This document shows, piece after piece, positions 28,052 to 30,207 of a stretch of DNA of 64,000 bases. Within the stretch, counting starts at the first letter, position 1; every line of letters begins with the position of its first letter. This DNA comes from Escherichia coli (GTDB lineage Bacteria > Pseudomonadota > Gammaproteobacteria > Enterobacterales > Enterobacteriaceae). The notes beneath the pieces were generated by a model. That model was not told the origin of the DNA, made no database searches, and saw only the letters and a program-made list of their open reading frames with translations. The DNA lies in NCBI RefSeq assembly GCF_044324785.1, contig NZ_CP172127.1; one strand, 5' to 3'. Both the position numbers and the translations under genes were made by a program.

Positions 28052-30139
28052 TCAGAACTGATAGTTCAGCGACATCCAGTAATTTCTCTCAGGTATCACA
28101 TAACCCGTTGTCGATGCCCCCGTCTGGAAGTAATCACCCGCATAAAGCGTACCACTGCCGGCACGATACAGACTTACGTCACTGTAATCCTTGTTAAGCA
28201 CATTATTCACCGCTGCATTCAGCATCAGTGCATCCGTCACTTTCCACGACATGCCCGCATCCAGTACCGTCCAGGCTTTCAGATATTCACCTTTCTCATC
28301 ATACACTTTCTTCTGTACAGCTGAGAGTGACGAATAATTCTGGGTGAAACGTGGCGTTTTCCCGCGGTAACGGGCACCCAGCCATGATGTCACCTCTTCA
28401 GTAATCTGCCAGTTCAGTTTCGCATTCACCATATGCTCAGGGGTGTAACTCAGTGGTGCACCTTTATTATCCCCATCCCGTTGTTCACTCTGCGTCCAGG
28501 TATAATTCAGAGACAGAGTCACATCCTCTGACAACAGAGGCAGTGTGCCGGCAAATTCCACGCCCTGAGTCCTAGCCTTTCCGCTGTTTGTGTAGCTGCG
28601 GGTATTATCATCAATGGAATAAGATACGATCTTGTTGGAGAATTCTGTCATAAAGCCCGTGATATTGGCGTTCAGACCGGCATGATTATCGTAATACACG
28701 CCCGCTTCATAACTGACACTCTCCTCCGGCTTCAGGTCCGGGTTACCGAGAAGATTCGTACGCCCCTGACCGGACACACCGCTGATCCCCTTATGTAACT
28801 GCCCCATGCTGGGCGCCTTATATCCCGTGGTCACCCCACCTTTCAGCGTCCACGCATCAGTCACATCCCAGACCATATATGCCCGGGGACTGAAGTGTCC
28901 TCCGAACACCTCATAGCGTTCATAGCGGCTACCCGCAGTCAGTGCAAATGCATCCGTGATATACCACTCATCCTCAACAAATGCCGACCAGCTTTTCTGA
29001 CGGAAGGTTTCACCAGTACTGGCGAGAACAACCCCGTCTTTCATGGAGGAGTTCTGATACTCACCACCGACGGTAACCTTGTGTGATTCCCCCAGAGGTG
29101 CAAACAGTAATGAGCTCAGGATAAGATTCGACTCCTTAAGCTCCCTCGGCTGGCCGGCAAGCCCCCATTTATCACGCTGCAGTACGCTACGTACAAGCTG
29201 ACGGCCTTTATTTTCCGTCTCATTCCAGTTCAGAGATGACTTCCAGGCTCCGAAGGTGAATGTATGATCATAGCCTGCTGAAATTTTATTACGCTCATAG
29301 CGCAGGGTGCGATCATAACCGCCCGTCAGACTGCCCAGCTGGCCATCTCGGTTATCATAACGCTGCCGGGCGATATCCATATCAATCCAGAGTACATCCT
29401 TGTCCGTCGCTTTCCAGTCAAGACGACCACCTGCATTATAATTCTGTGATTCCGTGGGATAAGGGATACGCGTAGCTGAGGTGTCGCTCAGTGATGTGAC
29501 CGATGAGCCCTGACGCTGCTGTGTGCTGCCACGTACCTGAAGGCTGAGTGAATCATCCACAAGGGGACCGCTGCTCCAGAAATTAAACTGGCTGCTGTTC
29601 CCCCATTTGTTACTTTCCTGCAGGTTCAGCCCGGCATTAACCGAAGAGCGCCATTTGTCTGCATTCTTTTTGGTGATGATATTCACCACGCCCCCCATGG
29701 CATCAGAGCCGTACAGAGTGGACATGGGGCCCCTGATAATCTCAATACGTTCGATGGCGGCCAGAGGTGGCATAAAACCCGTATTCATGGCAGCATAACC
29801 GTTTGGGGTTACGTCACTGCTCCCGCCCTGACGGACACCATCGATCAGTATCAGCGTATAACTGGCAGGCATTCCGCGGATGCTGATTTCCAGCCCACCT
29901 GTTTTACCCGTACCGCTTTCAACATCCACCCCCTCTACGGATCTCAGTGCCTCCCCCAGATCATGATACTGGCTGGATCGCAAATCCTCCTGGCTGATCA
30001 CTGAAACACTCGCAGCTGCACTGGTTAATTTTTTTTCATAGCCAGACGCCGTGACTACCATCACATCTTCCGCAGCCATACTGCTGACTGAAAACCCGAG
30101 ACAAGGGATGGCTACTGAAGCCAGAGTGGTTACTCGCAT
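28052..30139 (-). CDS. iha: TonB-dependent outer-membrane siderophore receptor / adhesin, IrgA-homologue (Iha-like)
   Basis: 695 aa; signal peptide, plug and beta-barrel hallmarks, C-terminal ...YWMSLNYQF; close to Iha as recalled; Fur box upstream. Confidence 0.75.
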   Translation of the reverse strand: MRVTTLASVAIPCLGFSVSSMAAEDVMVVTASGYEKKLTSAAASVSVISQEDLRSSQYHDLGEALRSVEGVDVESGTGKTGGLEISIRGMPASYTLILIDGVRQGGSSDVTPNGYAAMNTGFMPPLAAIERIEIIRGPMSTLYGSDAMGGVVNIITKKNADKWRSSVNAGLNLQESNKWGNSSQFNFWSSGPLVDDSLSLQVRGSTQQRQGSSVTSLSDTSATRIPYPTESQNYNAGGRLDWKATDKDVLWIDMDIARQRYDNRDGQLGSLTGGYDRTLRYERNKISAGYDHTFTFGAWKSSLNWNETENKGRQLVRSVLQRDKWGLAGQPRELKESNLILSSLLFAPLGESHKVTVGGEYQNSSMKDGVVLASTGETFRQKSWSAFVEDEWYITDAFALTAGSRYERYEVFGGHFSPRAYMVWDVTDAWTLKGGVTTGYKAPSMGQLHKGISGVSGQGRTNLLGNPDLKPEESVSYEAGVYYDNHAGLNANITGFMTEFSNKIVSYSIDDNTRSYTNSGKARTQGVEFAGTLPLLSEDVTLSLNYTWTQSEQRDGDNKGAPLSYTPEHMVNAKLNWQITEEVTSWLGARYRGKTPRFTQNYSSLSAVQKKVYDEKGEYLKAWTVLDAGMSWKVTDALMLNAAVNNVLNKDYSDVSLYRAGSGTLYAGDYFQTGASTTGYVIPERNYWMSLNYQF

Positions 30140-30188
30140 ATCTTCTCTCCGATTATATTAATCAGAGAGAAGATAAACAAACGCAAGA

Positions 30189-30207
30189 GATAATGAGAAT
30201 GATTTGC
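30189..30207 (-). promoter_or_regulatory. Fur box upstream of iha
   Basis: GATAATGAGAATGATTTGC against consensus GATAATGATAATCATTATC, about 50 bp upstream of the start. Confidence 0.55.

Follow-up and report, generated by a model that had tools for sequence, protein, structure and literature searches.

The Iha protein has been described as both an adhesin and a siderophore receptor with TonB-dependent transport, and the prototype is homologous to IrgA of Vibrio cholerae (PMC6920203). According to another report Iha is a receptor for catecholate siderophores (PMC12200846). The protein transports ferric enterobactin, its role in the uptake of enterobactin conjugates in strain CFT073 being negligible (PMC8179508). 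The prototype confers adherence to epithelial cells (PMC8565820, PMC6920203) and deletion of iha lowers colonisation of the ligated pig intestine (PMC8565820). The adhesin role of the protein is debated, and the experiments on Iha in the literature have all been carried out with the prototype lineage. The published subtypes of the gene, EDL933, LAA/LPA and pO113, differ mutually by 6-9% at the nucleotide level (Colello et al. 2019, PMC6920203). Carriage of iha as the cargo of an ICE is also on record, in the ICEEc8 element of O117:H7 STEC, which lies at pheV (PMC6455142).

We report the analysis of an iha gene in a 64-kb stretch of E. coli DNA, referred to below as the window. Our reading of the locus as a whole, to which we assign a probability of about 0.92, is that it holds an intact and probably functional iha, which outlasted the decay of the ICE that carried it and which encodes a receptor presumed to be controlled by Fur. 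The gene itself is well known from pathogenic E. coli, and this exact sequence is already annotated under that name in RefSeq. In the virulence typing of E. coli iha is a routine marker; the importance of the present work lies mainly in correct annotation.

The coding sequence occupies 28052..30139 on the minus strand, a placement drawn from the list of open reading frames, profile models and identity to RefSeq. The listed frame starts with ATG, contains no internal stop codon or frameshift and encodes 695 amino acids; a Shine-Dalgarno sequence read directly from the DNA, GGAGAG (30145..30150, minus strand), stands 5 nt before the start codon, and its GGAGA is kept in five aligned iha alleles of at least 90% amino acid identity. 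In a profile search the protein scores 1538.7 bits with the NCBIfam model NF010012/PRK13486, for which the curated cut-off is 924, and the alignment runs end to end, residues 1-695 of the protein matching positions 1-696 of the model. It is identical to the Iha of O157:H7 at 628 of 696 positions (90%, with 95% positives and a single gap of one residue). As judged from these comparisons the gene is iha and is intact, and the preliminary description of a full-length iha-like TonB-dependent receptor/adhesin is borne out. The DNA is 100% identical to that of the gene named 'bifunctional siderophore receptor/adhesin Iha' by PGAP in strain 1517k (WP_001266790.1) and to that found in many other complete E. 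coli genomes, many of them derived from chickens; the copy in SMS-3-5 is 99.9% identical. There are 59 records that carry the gene at 99% identity or more, conserved at 99.8-100% and coming from varied hosts and countries.

The protein has the plug, the 22-strand barrel, the signal peptide and the C-terminal aromatic residue of a TonB-dependent outer-membrane receptor. Pfam places the Plug domain (PF07715, 2.5e-27) and the TonB-dependent barrel (PF00593, TonB_dep_Rec_b-barrel, 6.2e-65); the signal peptide ends at MAA, with ED following, the TonB box reads DVMVVTA and the C-terminus is YQF. The count of 22 strands was read from the secondary structure of an AlphaFold model in which the barrel has a pLDDT of about 80-90 and the plug domain is of low confidence. 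Sequence comparison shows both the plug and the predicted extracellular loops to be conserved. Binding of a siderophore, dependence on TonB and adhesion we infer for this allele by analogy with the prototype.

Compared with the iha genes of O157:H7, UPEC and pO113, the window gene has 90% amino acid and about 86% nucleotide identity. Differences from the prototype are spread evenly over the gene (81-93% identity per block of 50 codons) and, with a dS of 0.6 against the O157 gene, imply a separate and old lineage and not a recent variant; the same evenness rules out that the allele is a mosaic or arose by recombination. The dN/dS for this pair is 0.083, and 0.138 when the window gene is compared with the allele of strain AR_0089, which is discussed below. 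A dS of 0.6 together with a dN/dS of 0.08 describes a gene that is deeply diverged yet, on these substitution rates, is under purifying selection. Diversifying selection on the surface loops was likewise examined and ruled out, as the predicted extracellular loops form the least substituted class, with 10 substitutions in 189 positions against 35 in 303 for the strands (Fisher p = 0.02), where loops and strands were assigned from the secondary structure of the model only. On these identities the window gene is a member of a minority allele lineage and not the prototype allele, and, on a comparison with EDL933-type and pO113-like copies, it appears to fall outside the EDL933/LAA/pO113 scheme and may represent a fourth subtype. 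Both poultry-associated and human isolates carry this diverged lineage (about 86% nucleotide identity to the prototype). PCR typing built on the published subtypes might miss the allele and, because it appears to fall outside the three-subtype scheme, typing by primers or by identity thresholds could under-call its lineage.

Upstream of the gene lies a candidate Fur box, GATAATGAGAATGATTTGC (30189..30207, with no strand assigned), which matches the 19-bp consensus GATAATGATAATCATTATC at 15 of 19 positions and extends from 50 to 68 nt upstream of the ATG. The preliminary description had called for a good Fur box about 50 bp upstream, which agrees with the 50 nt that separate the proximal end of the site from the start codon, and had ended its region at 30207, which is the distal end of the same site. 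Other iha alleles have a Fur-like site at the same position, matching at 12-14 of 19, and across alleles the box is the best-conserved block upstream of the gene. Elsewhere in the window sitA, too, is preceded by a Fur-like site, which serves as an internal control. Rashid et al. (2006) reportedly mapped the Fur regulation of iha. The conservation of the predicted operator across alleles and orthologues suggests that the window gene, too, is regulated by Fur and iron. A consensus scan of 27700-30700 found no sigma-70-like promoter upstream of iha on the gene strand. A TTGTTT-17-TATAAT arrangement was spotted by eye at 30180-30152; transcription from it would begin inside the Shine-Dalgarno sequence and for this reason we do not propose it as the iha promoter.

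The DNA around the gene is made up of the debris of mobile elements, much as the preliminary description had it. The ICE remnant, of the pKLC102/PAGI-2 (ICEEc2-like) type, covers 25003..27198 on the minus strand and is recognised from partial NCBIfam matches below cut-off: a fragment of TIGR03757 (26840-27118), two pieces of TIGR03756 (26196-26726 and 25752-26114), and TIGR03755 reduced to its N-terminal 67 residues (25404-25745). On identical DNA, PGAP reports internal stops in both TIGR03756 and TIGR03757 and classes them as pseudogenes. The remnant is cut off by a stretch of insertion sequences (23459..24981) that consists of an IS5 transposase gene on the plus strand (23459-24475; NCBIfam transpos_IS5_4, 365 bits) and an IS2/IS3 transposase remnant on the minus strand (24584-24981; partial matches to IS2 TnpB). 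On the promoter side of iha lies an IS630-family transposase gene (31893..32924, minus strand; NCBIfam transpos_IS630, 244.6 bits, and PGAP). Two short open reading frames, one of 94 amino acids upstream of iha (30452-30736) and a glutaredoxin-like one of 97 amino acids (27314-27607), gave no family match above cut-off. A tRNA scan found no tRNA gene in the 64-kb window, so that the integration site is not visible there. The marks of an ICE of this type are the TIGR0374x-0375x gene set, a tRNA-Phe integration site and a tyrosine recombinase; in the window TIGR03755, TIGR03756 and TIGR03757 survive only as broken copies and there is no tRNA gene, and we therefore speak of a remnant and not of an ICE.

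The origin of the gene becomes apparent from its relatives. Strain AR_0089 has a full set of conjugation genes around a related iha allele, and the window matches this intact ICE in two stretches, with 95% identity over 25003-27198 and 93% over 27979-30253 (blastn). The latter interval (27979..30253, minus strand) is what we call the iha cassette; within it, the core common to all iha alleles is limited to 28042-30227 (minus strand, 85-86% identity, megablast). In 24 complete genomes (AR_0089 and 23 others) iha lies inside that intact ICE segment, and about 11 genomes have the same ICE backbone without iha. A second ICE backbone, 77-80% identical to the first, carries an iha of the prototype lineage at the same site. 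ICEs of the pKLC102/PAGI-2 type are known to integrate at tRNA-Phe genes and, in SMS-3-5, the island found in the window is located at tRNA-Phe (pheV), adjoining a tyrosine recombinase gene. Given the intact relative in AR_0089, the remnants in the window are the wreck of an ICE that carried iha. On this comparison of sequences the window gene is a fossil of ICE cargo; ICE-borne iha as such has already been published, for ICEEc8.

The leader of the gene contains an inverted repeat (30139..30175, minus strand) which a repeat search describes as 17-bp arms, 94% complementary, around a 3-nt loop. In the predicted RNA, UAUCUUCUCUCUGAUUA pairs with UAAUCGGAGAGAAGAUA, covering the Shine-Dalgarno sequence and the A of the AUG. 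The 64-nt leader folds at -27.5 kcal/mol (z = -6.8, with none of 200 shuffles as good) and the hairpin by itself at -22.8 kcal/mol. Every closely related iha allele of E. coli that was examined is predicted to form a weaker hairpin, the z-scores of the other alleles running from -2.4 to -5.6, and the 17-bp form of the window lineage is stronger than that of any other allele examined. Such a structure could strongly limit translation of the window allele. That it adds a second layer of control over that of Fur, by hiding the Shine-Dalgarno sequence and the start codon, is a tentative and rather unlikely proposal; were it true, translation would depend on something that opens the hairpin, such as a small RNA, temperature or a protein. 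For the post-transcriptional control of a siderophore receptor, this hairpin across the ribosome-binding site is a testable candidate.

At the other end of the gene, RNA folding predicts a hairpin some 40-75 nt past the stop codon (27979..28011, minus strand), which has no U-tract, is weak (z -1.3) and ends at the cassette boundary. A stronger one (z -3.1) is found at the equivalent place after the O157 iha. The hairpin in the window may represent a structure of the transcript end. A terminator scan of 27700-30700 found no canonical intrinsic terminator, and a search of 20000-40000 with Rfam returned nothing in or adjoining iha. The only Rfam match within 20000-40000 is isrN, at 38057-38199.

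Other accounts of the locus have to be weighed against this picture. The protein could be some other receptor for catecholates or heme (CirA, IreA, FepA, CfrA or IrgA-like) that merely resembles Iha: its fold is that of the TonB-dependent receptors, it gives significant matches to the CirA, IreA, FepA and CfrA families, and the nearest solved structure by sequence is CirA, the colicin I receptor (PDB 2HDF/2HDI), which matches Iha residues 25-505 with E = 7e-79. That match is what places the fold. The family models, however, draw a sharp line, since the protein reaches 484 bits with CfrA (cut-off 1200), 399 with IreA (1197), 331 with CirA (745) and 268 with FepA (493), against 1539 for a cut-off of 924 with the Iha model and 90% identity over its full length to the O157:H7 protein. 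A best match to another receptor family, one of the outcomes that the preliminary description had named as refuting it, is not found, and we regard an identity with CirA, IreA, FepA or CfrA as refuted by the family cut-offs and the O157:H7 alignment, and give the wider idea of a mere look-alike practically no credence. Nor do we think much of the suggestion that the Fur box is a chance AT-rich sequence and that iha is not regulated by iron. The match is indeed imperfect, at 15 of 19, the region is AT-rich (GC 0.37) and the consensus scan recognised no promoter hexamers in its surroundings, but the box is the sole site with four or fewer mismatches in the 64-kb window, where the mean over 20 shuffles of the window is 0.1, and when the 200 nt upstream are shuffled 300 times its score is never reached. 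Fur-like sites are conserved, moreover, upstream of orthologues in Citrobacter, Serratia, Scandinavium, Klebsiella and Pectobacterium; among eight orthologues from other lineages six have a site of at least 15 of 19, placed 43-73 nt before the start codon, though the upstream regions are otherwise unalignable. The gene, its coordinates and the Fur motif are real and beyond chance, and an accidental match without iron regulation is very improbable.

A further account, likewise improbable, is that iha has kept its sequence but is in practice silent, a leftover whose translation is blocked by the hairpin and which is turning into a pseudogene. All of the neighbouring ICE genes are already pseudogenes, the island is riddled with IS elements, the hairpin over the Shine-Dalgarno sequence and the AUG is the strongest among the alleles examined, and an iha of the prototype lineage is already a pseudogene in the ICE of STEC2018-553. 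Against this, the reading frame, the Shine-Dalgarno sequence and the Fur box of the window gene are all intact, its sequence hardly varies across the 59 records and its dN/dS is 0.08-0.14. Weaker forms of the leader hairpin occur in alleles that are known to be expressed, so that the hairpin looks like a regulatory feature and not like damage.

We return to an intact iha that survives from a lost ICE. The copy was brought into E. coli on a cargo cassette of roughly 2.3 kb, which sat in an ICE of the pKLC102/PAGI-2 type with the TIGR03757 gene on one side and the conjugative-ATPase operon on the other; in this genome the ICE was later wrecked by IS elements together with point mutations, which spared the cassette. 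When iron is low, Fur would leave its operator, some 50-68 nt ahead of the start codon, and transcription of iha would follow. The protein would be exported by means of its signal peptide and fold as a barrel closed by the plug domain, binding ferric catecholate siderophores (enterobactin and its breakdown products) on the extracellular side, and import would be powered by TonB through the TonB box.

Among the described systems, the prototype Iha proteins of O157:H7 (OI-43/48) and UPEC (pheV island) resemble the window protein in length, to within one residue, and in having an identical domain order, and their genes have the Fur box in the same position, the same layout of leader and Shine-Dalgarno sequence and, in the case of O157, a hairpin after the stop codon. 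The genomic context differs, the shared sequence being confined to the common core; the Fur box of the prototype matches at 13 of 19 positions, so that the window, at 15 of 19, is nearer to the consensus, and the leader hairpin is much stronger in the window allele. The EDL933, LAA/LPA and pO113 subtypes belong to the same gene family and species and invariably lie on mobile elements; at the nucleotide level the window allele is some 13-15% different from EDL933-type and pO113-like copies, the two that were compared. CirA has in common with Iha the TonB-dependent fold and, by analogy, probably also the catecholate class of ligand; it forms a separate orthologous group, however, and is a gene of the core chromosome. 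The likeness to ICEEc8 is one of published description, an ICE at pheV with iha, and not of sequence.

A further close relative is the ICE of AR_0089. Its iha has 95% amino acid and 94-95% nucleotide identity to the window allele, its cassette has limits within about 20 bp of those in the window, and its neighbours TIGR03757, TIGR03756 and TIGR03755 follow in the same order and orientation. In the intact AR_0089-type ICE the cassette sits between 77-nt direct repeats, which stem from the 3' end of the ICE gene upstream, whereas in the window the flanking repeat is absent, the ATPase side is gone and the downstream ICE genes are pseudogenes. The locus offers a clear case of a 'pathogenicity-island' gene that is the cargo left over from a decayed ICE, with both intact and empty-site relatives at hand for comparison.

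The receptor gene in the window is iha, which is already known and annotated. Its open reading frame (28052-30139, minus strand) is uninterrupted and encodes 695 amino acids, with a Shine-Dalgarno sequence, GGAGAG, read from the sequence 5 nt ahead of the ATG on the same strand. The product carries a signal peptide ending at MAA, ahead of ED, then a TonB box, DVMVVTA, the Pfam domains Plug (PF07715) and TonB-dependent barrel (PF00593), and a C-terminal YQF. NF010012/PRK13486, the NCBI equivalog model for Iha, matches over its full length, scoring 1538.7 bits where the cut-off is 924. 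In the comparison with the Iha protein that the preliminary description had proposed, the window protein is 90% identical to O157:H7 Iha (628/696), and the other receptor families were rejected, each falling far below its own cut-off: CfrA (484 bits vs 1200), IreA (399 vs 1197), CirA (331 vs 745) and FepA (268 vs 493). That description of a full-length Iha-like receptor is thus borne out, as are its coordinates, 28052 being the end of the ORF and 30207 the distal end of the Fur box. At least 99% identity to the 2.5 kb around iha is found in 59 RefSeq records, all complete E. coli genomes and many of them 100% identical; many of the strains came from chickens, and isolates from humans and the environmental strain SMS-3-5 are also represented. 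The PGAP annotation in the listed records already reads iha, 'bifunctional siderophore receptor/adhesin Iha' (WP_001266790.1 in 1517k and SMS-3-5), so the identification is already public annotation.

The allele itself is diverged. When 1615 iha records are binned by identity to it, 59 lie at 99% or above, 20 at 90-95% and 1536 only at 80-90%, the last bin taking in O157:H7, a pO113-like plasmid and chromosomal copies from ExPEC. At the level of coding DNA the allele shares 85-87% identity with the copies of O157, NCTC86 and the pO113-like plasmid. This divergence is evenly spread along the gene, and a mosaic origin was therefore rejected. Against O157, dN is 0.051 and dS 0.61 (dN/dS 0.083). 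A protein search returned E. coli clusters at 100, 95, 91, 90, 89 and 76% identity and, beyond these, chromosomal Citrobacter genes at 73%, then Serratia, Shimwellia and others. Three iha subtypes, 6-9% apart, are described in the literature (EDL933, LAA/LPA and pO113; PMC6920203), and the window allele appears, from comparison with EDL933-type and pO113-like copies, to lie outside all of them.

An AlphaFold model of the window protein (mean pLDDT 72; barrel about 80-90, plug poor) gives an approximate topology of 22 strands, at moderate confidence. Placed on it, the 67 substitutions relative to O157 Iha are fewest in the predicted extracellular loops (10/189, 5%) and more frequent in strands (35/303, 12%) and periplasmic turns (8/40, 20%; Fisher p = 0.02). 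On this predicted topology the scarcity of loop substitutions is the reverse of immune or phage pressure, and would fit a conserved surface function. Such a loop-poor pattern, derived as it is from a model, is unusual for a surface-exposed receptor.

Upstream of the gene, the Fur box that had been proposed about 50 bp away is upheld: the putative site GATAATGAGAATGATTTGC (30189-30207) agrees with the Fur consensus at 15/19 positions, ends 50 nt ahead of the ATG, and is the sole site with at most four mismatches in the 64 kb window, where shuffled windows average 0.1. Homology between iha alleles ends about 90 nt before the ATG, and within this stretch the best-conserved part is the Fur-box block ATTCTCATTAT, shared unchanged by five of the six alleles in the comparison and one base off in the pO113-like copy. 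The site scores 15/19 in the window allele, 14/19 in AR_0089 and 13/19 in O157 and NCTC86, at a common distance of 50-52 nt from the ATG. Eight orthologues were also compared (the E. coli gene of 76% protein identity and those of Citrobacter, Serratia odorifera, Shimwellia, Scandinavium, Salmonella, Klebsiella variicola and Pectobacterium); their upstream regions are unalignable apart from the Fur site, which in six of them scores 15/19-17/19 and ends 43-73 nt before the start codon, scores that shuffles seldom match. The window offers an internal control in sitA, which is preceded at a distance of 76-94 nt by a Fur-like site (14/19, 58027-58045). Rashid et al. 2006, as cited in PMC6313751, reported that Fur regulates iha, and from the sequence we strongly infer that the window allele would be Fur-regulated. 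A promoter scan recognised no -35/-10 hexamers for iha.

The leader also contains an inverted repeat (30139-30175, minus strand; 17 bp, 3-nt loop), absent from the preliminary description, in which pairing on the mRNA strand, one G-U pair included, joins an upstream segment to the Shine-Dalgarno sequence and the A of the AUG. The isolated hairpin has a predicted energy of -22.8 kcal/mol; for the whole 64-nt leader the figure is -27.5 kcal/mol (z = -6.8; none of 200 shuffles as good). In the other iha alleles examined the hairpin is weaker (z -2.4 to -5.6), shares the apical stem (CCGAUUA...UAAUCGG type) and has a lower stem that spans the AUG. Where alleles differ, the change is one-sided and preserves pairing, no double compensatory changes being seen among the alleles compared, and the hairpin is absent from the orthologues in other genera. 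Provided that its left arm is transcribed, it may be a candidate translational control element.

The textbook account of Iha offers the best-supported reading of the window copy: Fur-Fe2+ bound at the operator would repress iha transcription, iron limitation would lift that repression, and Iha would import ferric catecholates in a TonB-dependent manner and could also promote adherence. Catecholate uptake, TonB dependence and adherence are drawn from the literature on the prototype Iha (PMC6920203, PMC8179508, PMC12200846, PMC8565820); that the window allele works likewise is supported by its conserved loops, the purifying selection on it and an intact promoter region. The main rival explanation, in which this copy would be translationally silent or decaying, we consider decidedly improbable.

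The surroundings of iha are, as had been described, decayed mobile elements, comprising IS5, IS2/IS3, IS630 and the broken conjugation genes TIGR03755, TIGR03756 and TIGR03757 of an integrative conjugative element (ICE). Downstream lie, in order, a weakly glutaredoxin-like ORF of 97 aa (27314-27607, minus strand; GrxA model E = 6e-8, below cut-off), a TIGR03757 fragment, TIGR03756 in two pieces, the N-terminal 67 residues of TIGR03755, and then an IS2/IS3 remnant and IS5. Upstream are a 94-aa ORF (30452-30736, plus strand, divergent from iha; hypothetical protein WP_000370415.1 in identical genomes), for which a family search gave no significant match, transposase fragments and IS630. GC content is patchy: the ICE remnant has 56-59%, iha about 51% and the spacers 37-46%.

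Elsewhere in the window, positions 1-20793 belong to a Mu-like transposable prophage with genes for DUF935 and ExeA-family proteins and a transposase, and prophages of 100% identity occur in many E. coli genomes. Its boundary near position 20793 disrupts a PhoX-family gene, leaving a 151-aa N-terminal fragment (20790-21245); among the best-matching genomes listed, no match runs on past about 20795, so the prophage is missing from this site in all of them. The window also holds a full-length isrN, the Hfq-binding island-encoded sRNA of Rfam (38057-38199, minus strand; 138 bits vs a gathering score of 44), and the sitABCD iron/manganese transporter genes (58121-61591). A group II intron reverse transcriptase/maturase gene (50139-51663), a pseudogene with an internal stop in a matching genome, shares an IS-riddled island with a sodC-like superoxide dismutase gene (54235-54759). 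In 1517k the island runs on past the window end into the aerobactin genes iucC, iucD and iutA.

In strain AR_0089 a 94-95% identical iha allele sits in an intact ICE, between TIGR03757 and a small gene preceding the conjugative-transfer ATPase, amid the whole TIGR0374x-0375x set, traD, traG, pilL and an integrase-domain gene. The window matches this ICE at 95% over 25003-27198 and 93% over 27979-30253, and the 780-bp spacer with the 97-aa ORF has no counterpart in it. The intact arrangement with iha occurs in 24 complete genomes, and the same backbone with an empty iha site in about 11 (e.g. 5CRE51, locus L010). On either side of the AR_0089 cassette lie 77-nt direct repeats (L007 19839-19915 and 22243-22319; 91% identical) that duplicate the 3' end of the upstream ICE gene; these repeats and the empty-site ICEs of the same backbone suggest that the cassette was gained or lost through recombination between the repeats. 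STEC2018-553 has a second ICE, which shares just 77-80% identity with the first in its backbone; at the same intergenic site it holds an iha of the prototype lineage (L009 14021-16111), annotated as a pseudogene with an internal stop, so that both iha lineages occur at this position. The cassette there matches the copies in O157, NCTC86 and the pO113-like plasmid at 91-92%, and none of these copies retains any ICE backbone. Furthermore, in SMS-3-5 the island with the window allele, the 91.9-kb GI-pheV, begins at tRNA-Phe beside a tyrosine recombinase gene; the integrase of GI-pheV has only about 46% nucleotide identity to the usual P4-type integrase. Given the intact AR_0089 relative, the empty-site ICEs and this tRNA-Phe island, the window iha is cargo that has outlived its ICE, the element having decayed in situ. 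The ICE origin of iha is a confirmation and no discovery: an iha-bearing ICE has been published, ICEEc8 at pheV in O117:H7 STEC, together with an O91:H14 version without iha (PMC6455142), and ICEEc2-type elements at pheV and pheU are known from the literature.
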